NCBI GenBank assembly: GCA_951406725.2 | Contig: OX597835.1 | Location: 15,128,001 to 15,192,000, forward strand | Source: Octopus vulgaris | Lineage: Eukaryota | Length of the DNA: 64,000 nucleotides | Direction of reading: 5' to 3' | Shown here: one piece after another, positions 4,240 through 52,235 of the stretch | How positions within the stretch are numbered: position 1 is the stretch's first letter | Layout of the letters: every line of letters starts with the position of its first letter | Position numbers and translations under genes: made by a program | Notes under the pieces: generated by a model | What the model was told of the DNA's origin: nothing | What the model saw: only the letters and a program-made list of their open reading frames with translations | Database searches by the model: none

Positions 4240-4633
4240 AAATGGATGGAAGCACTCCGTCGGTTACGACGACGAGGGTTCCGGTTGATCCGAATCAACG
4301 GAACAGCCTACTCGTGAAATTAACGTGTAAGTGGCTGAGCACTCCACAGACACGTGTACCCTTTAACATAGTTCTCGGGGATATTCAGCGTGACACAGAG
4401 AGTGACAAGGCCGGCCCCTTTGAAATACAGGTACAACATAAACAGGAAGTAAGAGTGAGAGAAAGTTGTGTTGAAAGAGTACAGCAGGGATCACCACCAT
4501 CCCCTGCCAGAGCCTCGTGGAGCTTTTATGTGTTCTTCGCTCAATAAACACTCACAACGCCCGGTCTGGGAATCGAAACCGCGATCCTATGACCGCGAGT
4601 CCGCTGCCCTAACCACTGGGCCATTGCGCCTCC
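4240..4633 (-). mobile_element. Full-length SINE family A tail 1 with 14-bp TSD
   Basis: TSD CTGGAGACGTTAAA at 4226-4239 and 4634-4647. Confidence 0.93.
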
Positions 4634-5837
4634 CTGGAGACGTTAAAGGGGTTTGCTGAAAAAAAAATTGTTTAAGAACTCCTGGTCAAACGGTGATATT
4701 TGATATAGAGAAGTTTCACTTCTTACTTCTCTGGTTATATTGATGTTGAGGAACGTCTGCTCATTATCTTCTTTCTCTGCCAGGGATTATACTAAGTACA
4801 GATGAACTAATAACACTTGGACATTTTCCTTTATTGCAAGGAACCATGATTTACTAGAGAATATTGGATATTTTTTTTCTCACACTGCTGTATCGATTGG
4901 TAAACACACACATACATTTTTCAGATGAGTTGGGTCTGTAGCTGCTCGGGAGGTTTGTATCTAATACCGGATATTGGAGATGGAACATCACTGAATATAC
5001 CAGCAAATTATTGGATACGATTTTAAACAAGTTAATTTGTGTCTTCGATAAATTTGACTGCTTTTTCTAGCAAATCGAAAGATTATAAAGTGGATTTCTC
5101 CTTGGTGTTTACTGAAGGCGTTCGTTCTGTACATAACGCCATACAGGAATATGTAAATTTGCGCTGACGTGTAAATATTTAAATGGCTGTCCGTATGTGT
5201 GAATTGATTAAAAATTGCAATCTATCTGCTTATTGTATTTGAAATAAAAATTTTCGTTTTACTCCAACGCTGGATATGAATTTAAAGTGTTATTAACAAG
5301 CTGTGTTCAAATAATTATAGTTTCCAGCTTAAATTGAACATTACATATATATCTTGTTTAATGAAATCCCGCTTAGGAAACGGTGTAAAACCGTAATTAA
5401 AGGAATTAGCGAGATAAGCACGGGTTGTGTCTTTGGAAGAGAACGAAATCCTCTTCTGAATCTACTAACTTTTATTGACTCCTCTTAACATCAATTTAAT
5501 TGAAACAAATGTTTACTAGAGTTTTCCTTTTTCTCTTCGTCTTTCCATGTCCTTCTCTAACTAAGCTGCTAAACCTAAGATTATTTCTATCAGTAAAACC
5601 AATTATTTCCCTTTTAGTGTGTGTGTGTGTGTGTGTGTGTGTAAAAGTACGCATATATACCTGTATATATAAATACGGTATATACATGTTTATAAAGATG
5701 TATGTGTATATATACAAACATACACACACACAAAGTGAAAGATAGTGGGATAGAAAGCAGTAGAGAGAGGAAATGAGTGAGACAGAGAGAGAATAAGCAG
5801 TGGAGTGTTTTAAATAGGTGTATGCGTATATATATAT

Positions 5838-6149
5838 ATCACCGTGATCACCGTGACCGACCAGGCCATGAGATGTTGTTACATATCGCTGGTCACAATG
5901 CGTTCGCATTGTTTTAGCCTTCGAATGACGCCACCCCGCTGGCTAAGCGAGCAGGCCAACAGAAGAAAGAGTGAGAGAAAGAGTGCTGAAAGAGTACAGC
6001 AGGGATCACCCCCCCCCCCTACCGGAGGCTCGTAGAGCTTTTAGGTGTTTTCGCTCAATAAACACACACAACGCCCGGTCTGGGAATCGAAACCGCGATC
6101 CTGCGACCGTGAGTCCGCTGCCCTAACCACTAGGCCATTGCGCCTCCAC
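5838..6149 (-). mobile_element. SINE family A tail 3
   Basis: Same tRNA head and central domain as family A, but a different 3' part ending GGTCACGGTGATCACGGTGA. The tail recurs at 13999-14156 (+). Confidence 0.85.
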
Positions 6150-6175
6150 ACACAAACACACACACACACACACAT

Positions 6176-8255
6176 ATATATATTTTTCCACTGTTTATAT
6201 ATATATTTTTTACTGTTTATATGTTTGTACTGTCGTTACCGTCTTGCCTTTTTTTTACCCCTCCGCGACAAGATCTCAGAATTTTAATTGATTTGCTTGT
6301 CTCGGGAAGGAATTTTTCATTCGAAGTATACGTCTCGCTTTTATCCTTCGAAACGTTTAGTAGATGAAACTTTAGCGACTGAAGAAGGGGATTTTTCGTT
6401 GTGCTTATTGTCCTGTATCTCCTTTTTTTGCTTGTCTTGTTCCTTGGTTTGTGTCTATGTTTTTCGTCTCTCTATGTGTTCGACGTCCTTTTGGTGTCCT
6501 GTACACATATATGCGTGTGTATGTACATGTAGAGGTAGGTACGTACATACATGTTTATATATATGCATATATTTTATTAACATATTATACGACTAAACGC
6601 ACGCACCCTATTAAGTAAGATTGTTCTGTTTATCAAGTTCGCCTTGATATTAACTCTCACGCGACTCTGCCTCTTTCTTTCTTTCTCTCCCATTCCCTTT
6701 TTCGTCCTTTTTCCCTCACTTAACTTGTCTCTTCCTCTCTCTCTCTCCCCCTCACTGTTCTTCATGGTCTCCTCGCACCATTCCCCTTCTTCTCTCTCTT
6801 CCTCTTGCTCCTCCTCCCCCATTCCCGTCGTCCATCTGCGACGTACTTCCGTCGTAACTGCTTTCCCGTCTTTCCTCACCTGCCTTCTAAGGCCGCTGGT
6901 CGACATCTTCCTCTCTCGTCGTCCACTATAATCCAGCGTTTGCAATACTTTTTTCGTCTGGCGTTAACAGCCCTTCTTATCTTGTTCTCCTTGTCCTGTC
7001 TCTCACTGTTATATATTTATTTTTCCACTGTTTATATATATATTTTTTACTGTTTATATGTTTGTACTGTCGTTACCGTCTTGCCTTTTTTTTACCCCTC
7101 CGCGACAAGATCTCAGAATTTTAATTGATTTGCTTGTCTCGGGAAGGAATTTTTCATTCGAAGTATACGTCTCGCTTTTATCCTTCGAAACGTTTAGTAG
7201 ATGAAACTTTAGCGACTGAAGAAGGGGATTTTTCGTTGTGCTTATTGTCCTGTATCTCCTTTTTTTGCTTGTCTTGTTCCTTGGTTTGTGTCTATGTTTT
7301 TCGTCTCTCTATGTGTTCGACGTCCTTTTGGTGTCCTGTACACATATATGCGTGTGTATGTACATGTAGAGGTAGGTACGTACATACATGTTTATATATA
7401 TGCATATATTTTATTAACATATTATACGACTAAACGCACGCACCCTATTAAGTAAGATTGTTCTGTTTATCAAGTTCGCCTTGATATTAACTCTCACGCG
7501 ACTCTGCCTCTTTCTTTCTTTCTCTCCCATTCCCTTTTTCGTCCTTTTTCCCTCACTTAACTTGTCTCTTCCTCTCTCTCTCTCCCCCTCACTGTTCTTC
7601 ATGGTCTCCTCGCACCATTCCCCTTCTTCTCTCTCTTCCTCTTGCTCCTCCTCCCCCATTCCCGTCGTCCATCTGCGACGTACTTCCGTCGTAACTGCTT
7701 TCCCGTCTTTCCTCACCTGCCTTCTAAGGCCGCTGGTCGACATCTTCCTCTCTCGTCGTCCACTATAATCCAGCGTTTGCAATACTTTTTTCGTCTGGCG
7801 TTAACAGCCCTTCTTATCTTGTTCTCCTTGTCCTGTCTCTCACTGTTATATATTTATTTTTCCACTGTTTATATATATATTTTTTACTGTTTATATGTTT
7901 GTACTGTCGTTACCGTCTTGCCTTTTTTTTACCCCTCCGCGACAAGATCTCAGAATTTTAATTGATTTGCTTGTCTCGGGAAGGAATTTTTCATTCGAAG
8001 TATACGTCTCGCTTTTATCCTTCGAAACGTTTAGTAGATGAAACTTTAGCGACTGAAGAAGGGGATTTTTCGTTGTGCTTATTGTCCTGTATCTCCTTTT
8101 TTTGCTTGTCTTGTTCCTTGGTTTGTGTCTATGTTTTTCGTCTCTCTATGTGTTCGACGTCCTTTTGGTGTCCTGTACACATATATGCGTGTGTATGTAC
8201 ATGTAGAGGTAGGTACGTACATACATGTTTATATATATGCATATATTTTATTAAC

Positions 8256-8258
<3 letters not shown>
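6176..8258 (+). repeat. 837-bp tandem repeat, ~2.5 copies, Penelope pseudo-LTR/retrozyme-like
   Basis: Identical ORFs recur at 6288, 7125 and 7962 (period 837). Bounded by (TA)n. Each unit holds an HHR-like core. Confidence 0.9.
6343..6392 (+). ncRNA. Putative permuted (type II order) minimal hammerhead ribozyme; copies at 7180-7229, 8017-8066 and 8482-8531 (-)
   Basis: ATCCTTC-GAAA-CG-TT-[imperfect stem I TAGTAGATGAAACTTTAGCGA]-CTGAAGA-A-GGGGAT. Stems I and II are imperfect. Confidence 0.4.
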
Positions 8259-8287
<29 letters not shown>

Positions 8288-8289
8288 AT

Positions 8290-8905
8290 TATGTTAATAA
8301 AATATATGCATATATATAAACATATATGTACGTACCTACCTCTACATGTACATATACACGCATATATGTGTACAGGACACCAAAAGGACGTCGAACACAT
8401 AGAGAGACGAAAAACATAGACACAAACCAAGGAACAAGACAAGCAAAAAAAGGAGATACAGGACAATAAGCACAACGAAAAATCCCCTTCTTCAGTCGCT
8501 AAAGTTTCATCTACTAAACGTTTCGAAGGATAAAAGCGAGACGTATACTTCGAATGAAAAATTCCTTCCTGCGAAAAGCAAATCAATTAAAATTCTGAGA
8601 TCTTGTCGCAGAGGGGTAAAAAAAAGCAAGACGGTAACGACAGTACAAACATATAAACAGTAAAAAATATATATATAAACAGTGGAAAAATAAATATATA
8701 ACAGTGAGAGACAGGACAAGGAGAACAAGATAAGAAGGGCTGTTAACGCCAGACGAAAAAAAGTATTGCAAACGCTGGATTATAGTGGACGACGAGAGAG
8801 GAAGATGTCGACCAGTGGCCTTAGAAGGCAGGCGAAAAAGGACGGGATAGCAGTTACGACGGAAGTACGTCGCAGATGGACGACGGGAATGGGGGAGGAG
8901 GAGCA
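8290..8905 (-). repeat. Inverted copy of 7643-8258, forming a palindrome with ~615-bp arms
   Basis: Direct reverse-complement match with a few substitutions; ~30-bp (TA)n spacer. Confidence 0.95.
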
Positions 8906-8932
8906 TGTATATATATATATATATATATATAT

Positions 8933-9134
8933 ATGAGTATAATTATATTTAGGGTTCAGCAAAAATTTGCTTCACCACATACCGAAATTTAGAAATAGCA
9001 GTTAAAACTAACTATTTCAGTACCCTAAGAAAATCTCCCAACAGTATTGGGATAGTTAGTTTTAACTGTTTTTTCTAAATTTCGGTATGTGGTGAAGCAA
9101 ATTTTTGCTGAACCCTAATTCTAATTATACTCAT
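8933..9134. repeat. Fold-back palindrome, ~83-bp arms
   Basis: ATGAGTATAATT...GTTAAAACTAACTAT (8933-9015) is the near reverse complement of 9051-9134. Confidence 0.9.
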
Positions 9135-9242
9135 AATTATAAAATTTATGTATAAATTTACCGATAATGGTTCTTTTGACATACCGAACTACTTGGTAAA
9201 ATTATCAATTAATTAATTAATTAATTAATCTTACTCTTTATT

Positions 9243-9329
<87 letters not shown>

Positions 9330-9347
9330 ATATATATATATAAATAT

Positions 9348-9409
<62 letters not shown>

Positions 9410-9660
9410 ATATATATATGTATATATATACATACATATACATACATATATATATATATATATATTTATATATTATATAAAAGGGCTTAGTAAAATAAAT
9501 TACTTTGCCACATACTGAACTCATTAGAAATAGTAGCTAAAAAAACTTTTTAAAACTATTTCTAATACTTAAAGAAAATCTCTCTCATATAGTGTTTGCT
9601 CAATTCAACTCACGAAAGTATGGGGGTAAAGACATTAAAAAATCAGATGCAAAGGTTGTT

Positions 9661-11794: not shown

Positions 11795-11876
<82 letters not shown>

Positions 11877-12017
11877 CACAGCCTGGAATCGAACTCGGAA
11901 TCTTAGGGTTAGTAGCTCGCGCTCTTCACCACTACGCCTATATCCGTGGAAATATAGCGCAGTGGTTAAGAACGCGAGCTACTAATCCAAGATTCCAAGT
12001 TCGATTCCAAGCAGTGA

Positions 12018-12088
<71 letters not shown>

Positions 12089-12454: not shown

Positions 12455-13380
12455 ACTCTACCTACCGGGGCCCTGGAAATCTGCATATTACAGAAGAATA
12501 TAGTGTTAATTTACCAGGGGTTACAGTATAGTGCGGCTTGTAATCAAAACGATCCATTGGACCATTCTTTTTTGAATGATACTGTGACAGAGCGCATTAA
12601 TTTGAACTTGTTGCGACATTCTGTCATACTAAGCATTCAAGAGGACATTTGGAGGCGCAATGGCCCAGTGGTTAGGGCAGCGGACTCGCGGTTGTAGGAT
12701 CGCGGTTTCGATTCCCAGACCGGGCGTTGTGAGTGTTTATTGAGCGAAAACACCTAAAAAGCTCCACAAGGCTCCGGCAGAGATGGTGGTGATCCCTGCT
12801 GTACTCTTTCACCACAACTTTCTCTCGCTCTTACTTCGTGTTTCTGTTGTACCTGTATTTCAAAGGGCCGGCCTTGTCACTCTCTGTGTCACGCTGAATA
12901 TCCCCGAGAACTACGTTAAGGGTACACGTGTCTGTGGAGTGCTCAGCCACTTACACGTTAATTTCACGAGCAGGCTGTTCCGTTGATTCGGATCAACCGG
13001 AACCCTCGTCGTTTCCTCCTCCCTCAAGAGGACATTTATTTCCAGCAAGATGGTGCACCTCTTAGCAGCCACAGTAATGTAAGGGCCTACCCCGAAGATT
13101 TTTCTCCAAACCAATGGATCAGATGAAGAGATTCGGTAGAATACCTTCCGCCTTCATCGGACATCGCAGCACTAAACACATTTATGAGCATACACGAAAC
13201 ATATAAATTTATTTTACAAAAACTGCAGCCGTCGACGAAATAACAGTAGCCATTGAATCGGAATGCATACAAATACCAAAGGAAAATTTTTCTGATACTT
13301 GCTTGCGATTCCATTGCTTTGTATTATGAGCAGTGTCTGGACCATAACGGTGGTCAGTTTGAAAACAGGCGTTCATAGAA
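12455..13380 (+). pseudogene. Decayed Tc1/mariner-superfamily transposase, split by a SINE
   Basis: Frameshifted motifs NLPG...IGPFF..DTVT, then IYFQQDGAP...VRAY...QWI...PPSSD...CLDHNGGQFEN. Confidence 0.75.
12651..13023 (+). mobile_element. SINE family A tail 1 with 14-bp TSD
   Basis: TSD TCAAGAGGACATTT at 12637-12650 and 13024-13037. Confidence 0.93.
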
Positions 13381-15826: not shown

Positions 15827-16228
15827 TGCCTATATGCTGAAAAGATACGCTAATCGTCGAACCACGTTAAATATGTTCACAATCATTATGAAACAGGTGT
15901 CGTTAAATATGTTCACAATCATTACGAAACAGGTGAGGAAGCAAGCTAACAGAAATTCATAAAATTGAGTTACTTCTGGATCGGCCCAATTTCTGGGTTA
16001 ACCTAAAAGGATTATTCTTCATCACCAGAGAACACAAGGAACATCTGGTGTTCTCTGTTGATGAGGAAAAATCCTTTGAGGCCAATCCAGAAGTTGGTCT
16101 GATCCAGAAGTAACTCAATTGTATGAATCTCTTTTAGCTTGCTTCCTCGTTTCGACACGTCTTTCATAATGATAGTGAAGATATTTAACGTCGTTCGACG
16201 ATAGAACGTCTCTTTCCAGCATATATGC
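15827..16228. repeat. Long imperfect fold-back element, ~190-bp arms
   Basis: Arms pair from ATATGCTG...CAGAGAACAC to GTGTTCTCTG...CAGCATAT around a ~12-nt loop. The left arm has a ~36-bp tandem duplication. Confidence 0.85.
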
Positions 16229-19371: not shown

Positions 19372-19730
19372 GGCGCAGCGTGGCTATTGGCGTAGCGTGG
19401 CTATTGGCGCAGCGTGGCTATTGGCGCAGCGTGGCTATTGGCGCAGCGTGGCTATTGGCGCAGCGTGACTATTGGCGCAGCGTGGCTATTGGCGCAGCGT
19501 GGCTATTGGCGCAGGCATGGCTATTGGCGCAGCGTGGCTATTGGCGCAGCGTGGCTATTGGCGCAGCGTGACTATTGGCGCAGCGTGGCTATTGGCGCAG
19601 CGTGGCTATTGGCGCAGGCAGGGCTATTGGCGCAGCGTGGCTATTGGCGCAGCGTGGCTATTGGCGCAGCGTGGCTATTGGCGCAGCGTGGCTATTGGCG
19701 CAGCGTGGCTATTGGCGTAGGCATGGCTAT
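19372..19730 (+). repeat. 17-bp minisatellite (GGCGCAGCGTGGCTATT) x~21, continuous with a SINE family C head that runs to ~19875
   Basis: The last unit GGCGTAGGCATGGCTAT continues into GGGGTAAG...GTTCCGGGTTCAGTCCCACT. Confidence 0.92.
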
Positions 19731-28935: not shown

Positions 28936-30890
28936 TTAACACACACATTTCTTACATGAAGTGCCTTTTACACCCTGACATTCCTACCACCCATTCCTTT
29001 CCTTCATCGTTTCCAGTTTATATTCCAACCATTTCTTTCGCGTCCTCATTCCTCAACCCATGCCCTTGCACTCACAGCCCTCCTCCTACGTCTCAAGAAA
29101 GTTGATTGATGCTTTCTTTGTTAGCTTCTCCGTCCCCTTTCTTACTTTTACGCCCACGCTTCGCTTCTGCTAAATATATACCAAAACACCAATTGCTTTT
29201 ATGGTTCTAATGAACATTCAATCTTAAAGGAATATAGTAAATGTATACGAGCAGAAAATAAAGAAAAAAAAACGGAGAATAGTTTAAAATATATAAATTC
29301 AACACGTGAGTCTGAACGTGCGTGCATGCGTGTGTGTTCGAGCGTGTGTGTGTTCGAGCGTGTGTGTGTTCGAGCGTGTGTGTGTTTGCGCGGACATGTT
29401 TGCGTCCGGGTGCTCGTGTGTGACGGTAAGAGGCGATAGAGAGAGAGAAAAAAAATACAGAGTAGCGCGAAAGTTTATAAAATCTAATGAGCTCCCATCT
29501 CAAATATCAACCCGAGAAATGATTATCCCAAATCTAAATAACGAATGGGGCATAAAATGGAGTTAAGCTTTTGACCAAGTCTCTGGATAAGGTTTCAGAA
29601 ATTAAGATTTATTTCGCGAAACATTCGTTGATCTCTTCAGTTTGGCTCACAGATTTTTTATTTATTCTTTTTGTTACTAAACAGTTTGAAACTTCGTGTA
29701 CTGGTGTAATTTCTCACGCTAAAGACAGTTTACTTTCAACATTTTTGAGAAAAATTTCGTATTTTAGAAGTTATTTCGTGTTAAAGTTGTCGTATTTGGG
29801 TAATTTTAACCAATCAACGACGTGTATTCAGCTGAAGAAACCTACTGCTGTTTGCGATAGTAATCGATGAGCAACAACTTCCGGGTCATCTCTACAAAAT
29901 GTACTTTTCCATTTTATTTTTGTTTACTGCTTGTGTTGCATACTACACGTGGTTGACAAAATACATTTAGCATTTGTTGTTGCTCGACGATTACTATCAC
30001 AAACAGCAGTAGGTTTTGGACGTTGGTGGACGTTGGTGACATTTGAATGCAAAGACGAACGAGATGTTACTAAGCATCTGGTCCGGCTAACGATTCTGCT
30101 AGCAATCCAGCGTGCCATCAGAGTGACACTGGATTATAAATATATGAAGTTCAATATACCCATTGGGGTTTATTATTATGCTAATGAATAACTCTTGTCA
30201 AAAATCCAAGGGAGTTAACCTCGAAATTTTGATTAAAATCATACAAATACGGAGTATAGTAGGGAGTCTATCCCCTATTAAGCAGTGCAGTGATAATTCT
30301 GGATATGTTTCTATCTTATTAGAACCTCATCAACGAAACTTTGCTTAAAAGTAACCGAAAGATATATTGGAATGACAGGGCAAGTGCAGGGCTTTCATAA
30401 AGGGACAATACGTAGCGAAATAGCTTTTAATATTCCTGAGAAAAACATTCCTAATTACTCCTGCTGCTTGAAAAAAAACAATAGTCCTTCCCTCCATTGA
30501 AAGGAAATTAAAGAATTATGTAAATGACTAACTCTGGTTTAAAAAGACATTCGCTGATGAGAACGAATAAAACCGAAACATACCCACAGTTATCTAATGC
30601 TGTTAAGGACTATTATACTCCATCACATTTCCTATTTAATAAATTGCAACTAAATAGATTTCCTCGATTGTCTCCCTTTGTTAGTTTTAATCTGCGTCCT
30701 TCATTTAGCTCATGACTTCTGCTCATCACGAACGTATTAGTTATTAATGCAATACTTGTTAGCTTATTGCATCAAGTATGCTAACGATCACTTTATTATC
30801 AATTATTCATGCAGCCGACGTTTCTGCGCACTGCTCCAAGTCATTCTTTATAATATCTAATATACTATGGATGTCATTTTCTTTCTCTCC

Positions 30891-32465: not shown

Positions 32466-34892
32466 TGGAGTCGACTGCATGGTCGAACACTCTTCAGGTT
32501 ACAGCATAACTCCTGCTTTCAGCAACGAGAAGTCGTTTTGGTAGCCCTGTGCGTTCGACGAAGGCGTTCCAGGCGTTTGGGTATTTGGCAAATGATTCCT
32601 TTGAGCTGTTATGTGTTGACAACTGATCTTTGAAGAATCTCGAGCGATTTATTGTTATCTAATATCACAAAACCAATGCGTTGAACCGTCTCAGAAGGAA
32701 ATAAAAGAATTCTTGGCCAAACTGCCATCCACTGGCGATACATTTATCCAACATTCCCCTCGGGCAATGTATCAAGTAGTAATCTGGATGATGGAAATTC
32801 AAACACATTCCGTGATTCCTTCTTCACTGGAATTTAAATAATCTTTTATTCCAGAGGGAGAGCAGTGCTCATAACCTTTTGAAGGGCCTACGAAACTGGT
32901 GGGAGAGAGGAAGGAAGGGAGAGAGAGGAGGGGAAGAGAGTGAAAGAGCACTGTAGCCATAAACTAGAAACCTGGTCTCAGTTCTTGGAACACAGATGCA
33001 TCTCGTGCTTGTAGCTTCTCCCGGTTTAAAGAGATGGTGTTGATGGTGGGGTAAAACTTGCACTTTGTGTGCACTGCAAGGAACACACAGACGTCGGTCG
33101 AAAGTTGAATCACTCTCAGATCATAGAATGTGTCTACCAAGATGGCTACGACATCTCTATTCAAAAAATGAATTTCAATAGTTTTTTCTTTCTTATGCTC
33201 CACTGCTGCATGCAATACGTCAACTAAAACCCTGATGTCCGCCTTCTCGGTTTCGTATGGAAATGCTGGCGCGAACAGACTTCACATCTTGCCCTGATGT
33301 ACCACATACTGCTTTCTGTAGTCTTTCATGGCTAACGCAGTCGCTCGGGTCAAGATGAGAGACTCTTCTGAAAAATTTCGAAACTTCAGAGCAACCTTTC
33401 ATATATTTATTGTCTTCCTTGAAGACGAGAGCCACATAAAAAAACCCGCCACCCCACCTAATATTTTGCTCTCGTACCTCTGGGAGTCGTTCATGAAGAC
33501 GTCCTTTAAACCTGGTGTTGCTGACGAGCTTCTAGCTTCCTGTACATGATGTACCACCTTCACAGAATAAAACCCGAGCAGTTCTCATATAGTTTTGAAG
33601 AAGATTGTTTCTGGAATCACTGATGTCTTAATATAAATGGTCAGTTTTAAAAATGCTTGAGAGGCGTTCGTTTTCTCACCTGGATTCCCCCCCCCCCCAG
33701 GTGTTTGGCTCTGTTTGTCAGGGAGATTACGATTTGATTTCTCACCCTGGCAGACATGTCACGCAGTAATTATTCTGTATTGTAATAGCATTTACTCTCC
33801 CTATTTTCCTCAAGAGCTAGCTGCCCTTCTTTTCCTCTGTAATCAGCTTCTTTGTGCCTGCGTCTCTTGATGGAGAAAAATGTACTTTTCCATTTTATTT
33901 TTGTTTACTGCTTGTGTTGCATACTACACGTGGTTGACAAAATACATTTAGTATTTGTTGTTGCTCTACGATTACTATCGCAAACAGCAGTAGGTTTCAA
34001 ACACTTTCAAATACCCATCTGGAACTTATCTATTTCTTTCAGGACTGTGCACTCGCATCTTCCGTGCCCTTGCAAACTTACAATTTCAGAATTTCAAATA
34101 GAATATCTAAATTTGTTCCAGGAAGCAGAATGAAAAGCAAAGATTCATCATTACCAAAATAGAGTTCTGTAAGCGTCAGTTTAGCGGAAATGTTCTACAT
34201 TGGCAAGGAATAATGTTAGACATTTTTCTCTGTGTCTCTTTATCTGGAACTCTGCAAGAAGTTCTTCAAGTTATGAACACTCTCACTGGAAAACCATTCT
34301 GCGATCCCGGTCTGGCTCTAAGTTGAGTTACGCCGCAAAGACAGCTATGATTAATCGTGTGGCAATTATGACTAAAGGTGTAATAGTTATGACTAACACT
34401 ATACACTTATGACTAATTGTGTATGAATTTCTGAAGGAAATGAAAAAAATATTGTAAACAAACAAATCCTGCATAAGACATTTAGAACTCAAAGACTTCC
34501 GCTGGATTAATTTAAAATTTAAAGAAACACCTTTCAGTGAAATGTTACTTCAAAGGTAAAAATAATCCAACCCTTGAATAGGACTCAAATACTGCGTCCT
34601 TAATGGCACACAACTAGTGTCGCGGTAACGGCCAGATATTCGCTCTGTTTAACCACATTCTACTCATGCCTATACACGATTCCACCCTAAAGCGCACGTA
34701 AAAACCACCCGAAGTAGCAAACGCTGTAATACAAACAAAAAGAAAGCAGCAACATAAATGCATTTTTATTACGGAAATTCTTATAAAACCTTTGATTCGG
34801 TATAAATCAATGAATCGAATTATAATCAATGAATCGAATTAAAAAAAAATCTGTATTAAATGAATGAAAATACAGAATTGAACTCTTCCGTT

Positions 34893-35341: not shown

Positions 35342-36627
35342 GACTCCGCTTTAACGTGTCTTTAAATAATCTCATCTTCATACGACACATATGGCAAAAG
35401 AAAAGCGTTATTGTATAGAAATGTCGGCCATCTTAAATTTTGATGTTTTATAAGCATGATTTTTTGTTAAACTCCCGAAAGCCTCTAGCCTAATGTTAAT
35501 GAATAGATCCTAATGGAGTTTCATAAAAAGTATGGTGCTCTTCTTTTTCTAACTAACGGTTTTCTTTCAATAAAACATTAAGTCACTTGGTTTCAATCAC
35601 TTTTAGTCGAACAGATACTGAACAGAATGAAAAGTGATGTTGTTTTGAAAGTTAATCCTATGATATAATTATTATCTACAGGCCGTAAAGGCGGAAAGTG
35701 CACGGCCTTTTTGTTAAGACGGTGGGCTCACGATTATGAGTTTGTAAGTTCGATTCCTTGACTAGAGAGTGTGTTGAGTCCTTGAGCAAGACATTTCATT
35801 GCTCCAGTCTACACACCTGAGGCTCAATACCTGCCAAGTACTAGTGCAGTTTTCTCTCTCCTTCCTCGCCCTCTCTCTATCTCTCCGCTGGGTCAAAGGT
35901 GAGATGGGTGTCTATGCCTGCTTGCTACGATATAGGCAAATAAAACAATTAGTGGAATCATGGTATTACCTTTCAGGCCATACTGGCTTGCAAGTGACGA
36001 CTATGGCCCATATTTATAAGGCGATACATTGGCAGAATCGTTAGAGCATCAGAAAATGCTTAGGATTAAACTTTGATGTTTTATGGCCCAATGCATTCTA
36101 AGTTCAAATTGATGCTAAACGGACCCAACTTTTCAACCGCTTAGAGTCGATAAAATACACTGTAAATGATTAAAAGAGGTTGATTTAATTAACTTTATCC
36201 TTGCCCTAAATCTGAAACCTCGCATTCATCTCAGACATTCAGTTTCCGCCATGTCTTCGTTCTGTCTTCTGGTGAACATATTATGTCCCTGTGTTTACTG
36301 GTAAACAGTCCACATAAAGGGGGCAATGAAAGTAACAGCGCGTCCCAATGTTAAACTAACGACTTTAACAGACAGGCACGAACGGAGTGTTTATTCTTTC
36401 ATAAACACAGCAAATTAAAGAATCTTCGTCAGACCAAGAACCGCAAATGAGAGCAGTAATACCAAGCTTGCTTCAGTCACCAAAAACGCAAGCCACAGAG
36501 AGAGAGAGAGAGGGCTGTGAGAATGAAAGAAACGAATAACGAGTAATGATTAACGAGTTAAGAGCATGTATGTGTATGTATGTATACATGCACGCACACA
36601 TATATAACTATATATACCTAGACAGGG

Positions 36628-37015
36628 TGGAGGCGCAATGGCCCAGTGGTTAGGGCAGCGGACTCGCGGTCATAGGATCGCGGTTTCGATTCCCAGACCG
36701 GGCGTTGTGAGTGTTTATTGAGCGAAAACACCTAAAAGCTCCACGAGGCTCCGGCAGGGGATGGTGGTGATCCCTGCTGTACTCTTTCACCACAACTTTC
36801 TCTTACTTTTACTTCCTGTTTCTGTTGTACCTGTATTTCAAGGGGCCGGCCTTGTCACTTTCTGTGTCACGCTGAATATCCCCGAGAACTACGTTAAGGG
36901 TACACGTGTCTGTGGAGTGCTCAACCACTTACACGTTAATTTCACGAGCAGGCTGTTCCGTTGATTCGGATCAACCGGAACCCTCGTCGTCGTAACCGAC
37001 GGAGTGCTTCCATCC
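36628..37015 (+). mobile_element. Full-length SINE family A tail 1 with 11-bp TSD
   Basis: TSD ACCTAGACAGG at 36616-36626 and 37016-37026. Confidence 0.93.
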
Positions 37016-37476
37016 ACCTAGACAGGAAAGAGAGAGATGGATATATGCGTATGTGTATACGTATATTATATATATAAATTTTTATATAAATAAGGATAAG
37101 ATCGTTAATTAAAATACCGATCATATCAAGTGGCCAGCATGGGAATAAAATCCTTTATAGGTATTAATTATTATTAGAATTACAATTAAGGGTATTTAAG
37201 AGATACCACCATGATAGAGATAGCAGTCAAAACTTCACTCATATAATATTTCCTATTCCTTGACTGGAGCACCAGGTGAAAAGACAAATAGACAAATAAA
37301 CTAGCAAAAAGTTATTGGATAATCTCAGATCCGGATTTCTGGCTCTCTATAAAAATATACTCTGGATCTACAAATGCAATATCCCTGCATATCTCACATC
37401 TATTTTCATTCCTCCACTTCACTCTGTATTTCATACCTTATCTAAATTAACTATTGCTTAACCATTTTCTCACACC

Positions 37477-46454: not shown

Positions 46455-47016
46455 GAGGGCTGACGGAATCGTTAGCACGCCGGGAAAAATCCTTTTGGGG
46501 TCGATAAAATAAGTACTCAACGAGTACAGAGATCAAAGCAATCGATTTACCCCCTCTCCTGAAATTGCTGGCCATGTGCCAAAATTTGAAACAATCATTA
46601 TTATTAATATCATTCTCATTAATTCGTCTGTTTTTATGTTCTGAATTCAAATTCCGCCGAGGTCGACTTTCCCTTTTTATCCTTTCGGGGTCGATAAATT
46701 AAGTACCATTTGCAAACTGGGGTCGATCTAATCGACTAGCCCCCACCCCCAAAATTTTGGGCCTTGTGCCTAGAGTAGAAAAGATTATTATTATTATTAT
46801 TAAGGCGACGAGCTGACAGAATCTTTAGCACGCCGGGCGAAATGCTGAGCGACATTTCGTCTGTCTTTACGTTCTGAATTCAAATTCCGCCGAGGTCGAC
46901 TTTGCCTTTCATCCTTTCGGGATCGATAAATTAAGTAGCAGTAAAATACTGGAGTCGTTGTAATCGACTAATCCCCCTACCCTAAAATTTCAGGCCATGT
47001 GCCTTTTGTTGAAAGG

Positions 47017-49396: not shown

Positions 49397-49498
49397 CAGG
49401 TCGCTTCAACCGTGTTTTCTGACGTGAATTTGCTACCCAGGTTTCGGTTAAACGAATTTTCCATGCTGACGATAAACATAGGAAAATTCATTGACCTA

Positions 49499-49548
<50 letters not shown>

Positions 49549-49680
49549 GGCGGTGCCCCAGCATGGCCACAGCCCGTGCAGGTCGCTTCAACCGTGTTTT
49601 CTGACGTGAATTTGCTACCCAGGTTTCGGTTAAACGAATTTTCCATGCTGACGATAAACATAGGAAAATTCATTGACCTA

Positions 49681-49740
<60 letters not shown>

Positions 49741-50139: not shown

Positions 50140-51252
50140 TCACATGCATACATAAAAGCACATACATAAATATTTACATTCTTAGATAAATAAATATAAG
50201 ACGGAAGTAAAAGATATGCATATTAAAGTAAGAAAAACTCAAGATAAGTTGAAACTGGTAACGAAGATAATCGGAAACAAATGTGAGCCTATGTATGTTC
50301 CTAGGTGGTTTCAAGTCTGCATCTGTTCATTATACTTTTATCCCGCTACTTTCCACATCTGTTGTATGTATGGAGAGGTCATTATCTAGTTTTTCTTACT
50401 TAATTACAATTGACAGAGCATTTTTTCTGGTTGCCCTTATTAATTAATTGAGCTAAAAATACGCGGGTTTTATCTCTCTCTCTTGTAACCATTCTCGCCA
50501 CCCTTAACTTTCTTGAGGTTTATATTTTTTTTTTTTTTCCAACTGAAGGAAGCATATCATTTTCACTTGATCTGCTGAAATTTTTCCACAGAACATTCTA
50601 GAAACATATAAAACTGATCTCAATTATCGTTGCAACTTTCTACCCTACGGAATCATCTGAGTTAACTGCTTAAACGTTCATGTAACAGTGTCATCCCACC
50701 CCTATCTCTCTCCATCTCTATCTCTTTCTTTCTCTTGCTATTTCTTACTCTCCCTCACTTTTCTCTCTCTTTCCCTCTTCTCCCTTCATCACTTTCCCAC
50801 TCTTTCTCCCTCTCTTGTTGTCTCCTTTTCTCCCTCTCTCTCACACCCTCTCTCTTTCACCCTTTCTTTCTCTTTCTCTTGCCTGCCATTGCTTATTCTC
50901 TCTCCTTCTCTCTTCTCCTCTCACTCTCACACCCCTTTTTTCCCTCTCTCTCTCGTCCTCGTCCTCCCTCCACCTCACCCTCACCCTCCCACTCTTTCTC
51001 TTACTCTATTTTTGTCTCTCTTTCTCGCTCTCTTTTTCTCTCTAACTTTGATCAATATCTTCCCACCAATAGACAGGAACGCTGTACTCCGACTATTGTA
51101 GCAATTTGATTATGCTTCATCGATTTTCGTAGACGATAAAGATGTCAGTATTCTAACCAAGGGTAATTTCCCGTTTTCAATATTTCCTGTCTGCTCCAAA
51201 AGTTTAATGTTCTGATAGTAACATTATCTTCATCAAACGTTGGTGTGAACCC

Positions 51253-52235
51253 GTCAAAATGGTGGATGATGGGCATTTGACAATATTCCGTCAAAGTGGT
51301 GGATGATGGGCATTTGACAACATTCAGTCAAAATAGTGGTTGATGGGCATTTGACAATATTCCGTCAAAATGGATGATGGGTATTTGACAATATTCAGTC
51401 AAAATGGTGGATGATGGGCATTTGACAATATTCCGTCAAAATGGTGGATGATGGGCATTTGACAATATTCAGTCAAAATGGTGGATGATGGGCATTTGAC
51501 AATATTCAGTCAAAATGGAGGGATGATGGGCATTTGACAATATTCAGTCAAAATGGAGGGTGATGGGCATTTGACAATATTCAGTCAAAATAGTGGTTGA
51601 TGGGCATTTGACAATATTCCGTCAAAATGGATGATGGGTATTTGACAATATTCAGTCAAAATGGTGGATGATGGGCATTTGACAATATTCCGTCAAAGTG
51701 GTAGATGATGGGCATTTGACAACATTCAGTCAAAATAGTGGTTGATGGGCATTTGACAATATTCCGTCAAAATGGTGGATGATGGGCATTTGACAATATT
51801 CAGTCAAAGTGGTAGATGATGGGCATTTGACAACATTCAGTCAAAATAGTGGTTGATGGGCATTTGACAATATTCCGTCAAAATGGTGGATGATGAGCAT
51901 TTGACAATATTCCTTCAAAATGGTGGATGATATGCATTTGACAATATTCAATCAAAATAGTGGTTGATGGGCATTTGACAATATTACATCAAAATGGATG
52001 ATGGACATTTGACAATATTCCGTCAAAATAGTGGTTGATGTCATTTGACAATATTCCGTCAAAATGGATGATGGGTATTTGACAATATTCCGTCAAAATG
52101 TAGGGTGATGGGCATTTGACAATATTCAGTCAAAATAGTGGTTGATGGGAATTTGACAATATTCCGTCAAAATAGATGATGGGCATTTGACAATATTCAG
52201 TCAAAATAGTGGTTGATGGGCATTTGACAATATTC
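51253..52235 (+). repeat. 34-37-bp minisatellite, ~27 copies, each unit internally palindromic
   Basis: Consensus GTCAAAATGGTGGATGATGGGCATTTGACAATATTC(C/A). Confidence 0.95.

Follow-up and report, generated by a model that had tools for sequence, protein, structure and literature searches.

A tandem 837-bp unit and a diverged inverted copy at a (TA)n hinge in Octopus vulgaris, possibly of Penelope-like origin

Insertions of EN+ Penelope-like elements (PLEs) are described, in the sections of PMC8557442 and PMC3846280 covered here, with an inverted copy that usually lies on the 5′ side and has its 3′ ends outward; a tail-to-tail layout is possible but less frequent (PMC3846280, same sections). 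For the Naiad PLEs, which include Octopus and Euprymna families, the covered part of PMC8557442 reports partial tandems, inverted copies, (TA)n targeting and motifs labelled "HHR_half_core". Eight Naiad PLEs carry the half-core, those of Octopus and Euprymna prefer (TA)n, and the half-cores have no assigned function in that part of the paper. According to excerpts of PMC13282606 and PMC11167929, respectively, Octopus vulgaris has 336 recently active Penelope-like insertions, and an anole PLE showed AT-rich cleavage and extension on both strands in vitro. The minimal hammerheads (min-HHR) of PLEs have as hallmarks an extra base at 9/10.1, a G10.1-C11.1 pair and self-complementary positions 15.2/16.2 (PMC4209133, in the portion covered).

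Retrozymes are defined by a type I hammerhead in each unit (bioRxiv 10.64898/2026.07.22.740005 and PMC7229834, each in part). The type II hammerheads described are mainly bacterial and archaeal, and the repeat-associated eukaryotic ones are almost all type I (PMC3088659, in the sections covered). We found no description of a permuted hammerhead in animal retroelements in the part of the literature that was covered.

Here we describe a locus in a 64,000-nucleotide stretch of the Octopus vulgaris genome (assembly GCA_951406725.2, contig OX597835.1, positions 15,128,001 to 15,192,000; hereafter the window). Like EN+ PLE insertions, as far as the covered sections of PMC8557442 and PMC3846280 describe them, it has a partial tandem that begins with a short copy, next to this an inverted and truncated copy, a (TA)n target, no readable target-site duplication, and a hammerhead-like core near its putative 3′ end. 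It differs from them in that it has no RT/GIY-YIG ORF, its shared termini point inward across (TA)n and not outward, its inverted copy is 2.3% diverged, and no tail is seen. The reading that we prefer, and hold about as readily as we doubt it, is that the non-coding 3′ end of a Penelope-like element entered the same (TA)n twice, one time as a partial tandem and the other in inverted orientation.

Geometry of the array and its surroundings

Comparison of the window with itself at an offset of 837 gave 0 mismatches in 1242 nt (6181-7422 against 7018-8259), defining a direct array of 2079 nt, or 2.48 units, at 6181-8259. Begun at 6176 instead, the array has one mismatch, at 6180. By global alignment, 8284/8290-8905 is an inverted copy of 7642-8259 (~617 nt). 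The direct array of an 837-bp unit followed by an inverted copy across a short TA hinge, from which the preliminary description had started, is thus real.

Table 1 Features of the array, its flanks and the hammerhead-like motifs, in window coordinates.
Feature	Position	Strand	Remarks
Left flank: dispersed SINE-like repeat, then (CA)n/(TA)n tract	5848..6175	.	further copies in window
Partial first unit, ~415 nt	6176..6590	+	equals 7013-7427 except at 6180; presumed 5′-truncated, pLTR-like copy
Reversed-order hammerhead-like core, copy 1	6346..6390	+	GAAA half 29 nt before CUGAAGA half
128-codon stop-free frame, purine-rich strand	6577..6963	-	not supported as a gene
Full 837-nt monomer 1	6591..7427	+	boundary set at shared terminus, uncertain by ~6 nt
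Reversed-order hammerhead-like core, copy 2	7183..7227	+	4-bp helix II; helix I broken after 1 bp
AT-rich hairpin just 5′ of shared terminus	7344..7409	+	in every copy
Full monomer 2, up to (TA)n hinge	7428..8259	+	its final 618 nt are the palindrome's left arm
Reversed-order hammerhead-like core, copy 3	8020..8064	+	same motif as in copies 1 and 2
(AT)n hinge	8260..8283	.	(AT)n plus GTAT; presumably left over from the target microsatellite
Inverted copy of the last ~620 nt of the monomer	8284..8905	-	14 differences from the direct copies
Reversed-order hammerhead-like core in inverted copy	8484..8528	-	unchanged, inside a 214-nt difference-free stretch
Right flank (TA)n tract	8906..8934	.	(TA)n at 8908-8934

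All four pieces of the locus have one common terminus, and their far ends differ (~415, 620 and 837 nt). With the boundary set at this terminus, the direct array reads as 415 + 837 + 832 nt, that is, a truncated copy before longer ones, as in the partial tandems of PLEs that form a pLTR. The inverted copy stops where the direct copies stop in the unit, without running past the monomer junction; its end and that of the last direct copy coincide within ~6 nt of unit position and flank the (AT)n hinge. Both the geometry and the shared terminus are observed directly. That all four pieces have a common terminus, with their other ends variable, suggests that the 3′ end is constant and the 5′ end truncated to different extents. 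Target-primed reverse transcription characteristically leaves copies of this kind, alike at one end and cut short to varying degrees at the other. On this basis the + strand would be the sense strand and the layout, read as that of a PLE, would be tail-to-tail. The usual arrangement of an inverted copy on the 5′ side with its 3′ ends outward is not what is found, as the shared termini meet at the hinge and it is the outer ends that differ.

The locus had been said to be bounded throughout by (TA)n, which holds for the right border and the hinge; at the left border most of the tract is (CA)n, and TA units number only about four. TA is found at the hinge and at both outer ends (tracts at 6176, 8260-8283 and 8908-8934), and the internal tandem junctions carry no (TA)n tract. 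This agrees with the (TA)n or AT-rich insertion target of PLEs, for which the tracts are weak evidence given how common they are in the window. No target-site duplication is readable, and no tail of 30-40 nt on one end, as in PLEs, is seen at the termini, which agree within ~6 nt.

The sequence around the AT-rich hairpin (7339-7427) folds at -28.1 kcal/mol. The two arms together are predicted to fold into a single hairpin at -1131.5 kcal/mol (a length above the 1000-nt limit of the shuffle control), and the long dsRNA proposed earlier is correct as a folding prediction on the condition that the region is transcribed through. Searches of the 64-kb window with blastn and nhmmer gave no second copy of the 837-nt unit, only TA/GT-microsatellite matches and one chance match (nhmmer, 46463-46568, E 0.18), which lies inside a SINE-like repeat and was rejected. 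Prokaryotic genome contigs, scanned by motif, had 0 copies, a result that says little.

The window as a whole is microsatellite-rich animal sequence with many dispersed short repeats, which we take to be octopus SINEs; a motif of one such family matched 0 papers in a text search and nothing in one supplement. A young SINE-like family with 95-97% identity is dispersed at 3-572, 4243-4633, 12650-13012 and 36627-37016, and its copy at the window start has a 210-nt internal tandem duplication. Directly to the right of the inverted copy lies a 204-nt self-complementary MITE-like element (8932-9135; 87% arm identity, -130 kcal/mol), present once in the window. Imperfect palindromes occur at 11872-12021 (83%) and 15828-16228 (74%). 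Two 121-nt direct repeats with 97.5% identity (29896-30016 and 33877-33997) are ~4 kb apart, and a short reversed piece of the repeat's end is found near the first copy (~29835-29880). There are also a GC-rich 17-bp minisatellite of 21 copies (19372-19730), a 37-bp minisatellite of 27 copies (51251-52235), and a near-exact period-182 tandem duplicate (49397-49728) whose inner (TA)n length differs slightly between the copies, and which is either recent or an assembly duplicate.

The complete identity of the direct copies (0/1242 differences) is also what would be seen if the true locus held 1.49 units (or one) plus the inverted copy, the extra identical unit or units having come from assembly or haplotype stitching. 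Repeat-rich, TA-rich surroundings with another tandem duplicate, the one of period 182, fit such an origin, which would be compatible with a Penelope-like identity. We consider it rather improbable: the tandem junction coincides with the terminus that the independent inverted copy also has, and neither with a microsatellite nor with an arbitrary point, and the window has no N gaps.

Differences between the arms

Comparison of arm with arm revealed 12 substitutions (9 transitions and 3 transversions) and 2 single-base homopolymer indels, i.e., 14 differences in ~617 nt, two further end-gap columns of the alignment being left out of this count. The count of roughly ten noted at the outset is thus too low. 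The inverted copy is ~2.3% diverged from the direct copies, which differ from each other at 0 of 1242 positions; at the rate of the arms, the probability of no difference is 1e-14 if the two end gaps are included and, by hand calculation, ~1e-12 if they are left out. Four of the nine transitions are at CpG (P=0.008; CpG sites were counted for the direct arm alone, and one of the four lies within a cluster whose alignment is ambiguous). The differences are clustered (p=0.006), and a stretch of 214 nt has none at all. A-to-I editing of the template was rejected as their source, as the changes run both ways (1 A>G, 3 G>A, 1 T>C and 4 C>T).

With their transition bias, CpG bias and clustering, the differences look biological. 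This bears on the case in which the inverted arm is a chimeric fold-back sequencing read, named earlier as one that would dispose of the structure. An almost spacerless palindrome hinged on (AT)n is what such a read would give; 12 biased and clustered substitutions with only 2 indels are not what one molecule read twice would give, and this origin seems to us scarcely credible.

The same divergence does not support one recent rolling or template-switching event that flips, as had been proposed, since the arms differ at 14 of ~617 nt while the direct copies differ at 0 of 1242. What it would leave is either two templates or an old palindrome with later amplification of its left arm. The clustered changes between the arms, with their bias to transitions and CpG, set against identical direct copies, make another family member the likely source of the inverted piece. 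The other course, unlikely in our view, is an old fold-back, made by self-primed insertion or by repair template switching at a fragile (TA)n, whose arms drifted and whose left arm was recently amplified to 2.48 units. CpG-biased transitions fit ageing in the genome, the terminal hairpin adjoins the shared end, and self-priming in the sense orientation would give tail-to-tail repeats (PMC3846280, in part). The clustering and the 214-nt identical stretch, however, are more like two subfamilies than even decay, and the tandem junction lies at the element terminus, which a slip at the DNA level need not respect. A long, almost spacerless palindrome is moreover expected to be unstable over long times, which counts against an old one.

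A reversed hammerhead-like core

Rfam found no hammerhead or other ribozyme in 5500-9500 at E<=10. Its 82 matches there, mostly microRNA-like ones on TA hairpins, were all under the gathering score, a narrower search of 7040-7330 gave no hammerhead and 1 chance match, and the whole window had 0 gathering-level matches. A descriptor scan of both strands, with a loop II of up to ~900 nt and thus spanning the tandem junction, likewise found 0 type I hammerheads. The retrozyme layout of tandem HHR monomers that had been suggested for this array fails on this count, and by the published definition the locus is not a retrozyme. With the animal non-LTR retrozymes (PMC7229834 and bioRxiv 10.64898/2026.07.22.740005, in the parts covered) it has in common a non-coding, low-GC (~42%) head-to-tail tandem and a proposed PLE origin. 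It differs from them in a unit of 837 nt, against the usual 150-450 bp, in the absent type I hammerhead, and in a monomer that is not highly self-paired: this folds at -148.7 kcal/mol (z -3.6, 20 shuffles), yet is mostly unpaired with local hairpins.

What each unit does contain is one CUGAAGA on the + strand with GAAAC 29 nt upstream, the type II (reversed) order. The core halves are confined to the + strand in the descriptor scan and sit ~210 nt before the shared terminus. Helix II has 4 bp and includes G10.1-C11.1; an extra A stands at 9/10.1, and positions 15.2/16.2 are self-complementary, so that the motif shows three of the min-HHR hallmarks listed in the covered portion of PMC4209133. 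Helix I has 1 pair followed by an A.G mismatch, with at most 1 pair in the registers after the UH site and more than 2 contiguous pairs in 0 of 10 registers. The order GAAA...UH...CUGANGA with an open helix II is therefore present, and a helix I closing the cleavage site is not. Set beside the type II hammerheads of PMC3088659 (in part), the locus has the same order of core halves and helix II left open, but helices I and III are unformed. In a constrained fold, the hammerhead-like form has +3.6 kcal/mol against -8.9 kcal/mol for the free fold.

A strict descriptor (reversed core, helix II of at least 4 bp) was matched by 5 shuffles in 2000 and by none of 72 window tiles. A relaxed core of either topology turned up in 62 of 3000 shuffled units, in 10 of 3000 shuffled versions of the 415-nt part, and at 3 further places in the window. 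Since the descriptor was written after the motif had been seen, this is moderate evidence. Under the relaxed descriptor a further reversed-order core, with U at position 3 and longer spacing, lies at 33372-33439 and may be a chance match. At 32850-32900 there is a likeness by eye to helix II and the GAAA half of a Hydra-clade PLE hammerhead (in the covered part of the PMC8557442 supplement), with no intact CUGANGA.

The closest described motifs are in the consensus 3′ ends of Naiad_Ovul and Naiad_Esco (PMC8557442, in part), where GAAAC stands 27 and 24 nt, respectively, before CTGATGA on the sense strand, spacings that were read by eye from the consensuses and are maybe not the pairs scored by the authors. 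These elements likewise have the reversed half-core near the 3′ end and a preference for (TA)n. They differ in being described, in the covered sections, as having "no pLTR" and as long inactive in cephalopods, while this locus has identical copies. A search with 6 short motifs, and by eye in two parts of the supplement, gave no sequence match to the published cephalopod Naiad or Hydra consensuses.

An active retrozyme would require the type II-order minimal hammerhead to cut after 7194 in each unit, with the 837-nt monomers circularising and reinserting. The core halves, helix II and the three hallmarks are consistent with this, as are the tandem of identical monomers, the motif unchanged between diverged copies, and one PLE hammerhead that cleaves only with its protein present (PMC11167929, in part). 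We nevertheless regard it as very improbable, given the single pair of helix I before the A.G mismatch, the lack of any register with more than 2 contiguous pairs, the unfavourable fold energy and the absence of a hammerhead in Rfam. In addition, the array does not end at the putative cut site, and the monomer is largely unpaired, unlike the described retrozyme circles (PMC7229834, in part). In the reading that we prefer, the motif would be a vestigial or non-cleaving "half-core" instead of a monomer-cutting ribozyme, and it is probably inactive.

Coding capacity, orientation and a possible course of insertion

No RT, GIY-YIG or other protein homology was found in any frame tested. Pfam gave no homology for 9 frames of the locus, with three weak matches only (E 0.16-0.78), and none for the 124 filtered frames elsewhere in the window (at least 70 aa, not low-complexity), among which no parent element or host gene was identified. 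The 128-aa frame has no homologues (0 of 455 and 0 of 72 candidates scored, 0 in 1.84 billion representatives, no Atlas match), the 70-aa frame of the inverted copy has none either (0 of 19 candidates, no Atlas match), and no tRNA genes were found. The missing RT/GIY-YIG ORF bars only filing as an autonomous PLE; a non-coding end would lack the ORF.

The 128-codon frame bears on the orientation of the element. If the - strand were sense, the hinge would join two 5′ heads (head-to-head) and the purine-rich frame would be the start of an ORF. We keep this alternative because the stop-free frame extends to the monomer junction and may faintly resemble the N-terminus of a Penelope protein. The left end of the array lies approximately where the frame would begin, of 6 clustered substitutions that fall in the frame, 3 leave the amino acid unchanged (by hand), and head-to-head is the most frequent inverted form of PLEs (PMC3846280, in part). 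On the other side, the length of the frame is ordinary (327 of 1000 shuffles of 6591-7010 were as long or longer), it has no homologues, a one-base indel between copies shifts it, and the core halves are on the + strand only. With the - strand as sense, moreover, all four 5′ ends would have to be identical and the 3′ ends of three kinds, opposite to what target-primed insertion produces, and we think this orientation unlikely.

A Penelope-like origin is plausible, as first suggested, on the partial tandem, the inverted copy, (TA)n, the shared terminus and the core halves, with the lack of PLE protein homology standing against it. For the preferred reading, that of a non-coding 3′ end, we propose a course in three steps. 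The + strand would be the sense strand of the element and the shared terminus its 3′ end. An RT/GIY-YIG protein encoded elsewhere would then have nicked (TA)n and copied a template in target-primed fashion, circling a circular template or jumping back to the template end to give 415 + 837 + 837 nt, which fits the absence of (TA)n at the internal junctions; alternatively, unequal crossover between the 415-nt repeats may have supplied one unit at a later time. Finally, a second, slightly different family member would have entered the same tract in the opposite direction, 5′-truncated at ~620 nt. The two insertions may have come in either order, and the palindrome would be a by-product of shared target preference. 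In this scheme we infer the strand, the enzyme and the number of events.

The locus thus likely works like a non-autonomous PLE end, its membership being putative given the absent ORF and the unusual side of the inverted copy. It is likely to be a mostly ordinary structure that adds another complex Penelope-like insertion to those of an animal genome rich in microsatellites. Its value, read in this way, is modest: it illustrates that a nearly perfect hairpin of 600 bp can result when insertions have (TA)n as a common target. Such a hairpin, if transcribed, is a possible substrate for A-to-I editing or small-RNA production. A further-reaching interpretation, quite improbable to us, is that the 837-nt monomer belongs to a young family of animal retroelements and has a type II-order minimal hammerhead that, aided by the element's protein or by dimerisation, cuts tandem transcripts into circles reinserting at (TA)n. 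If true, animals would have a retrozyme of type II, and the unexplained Naiad half-cores would gain a function. The repeat-associated hammerheads of eukaryotes are almost all type I (PMC3088659, in part), and the locus would matter more if the reversed core proved to be conserved across the family and able to cleave.
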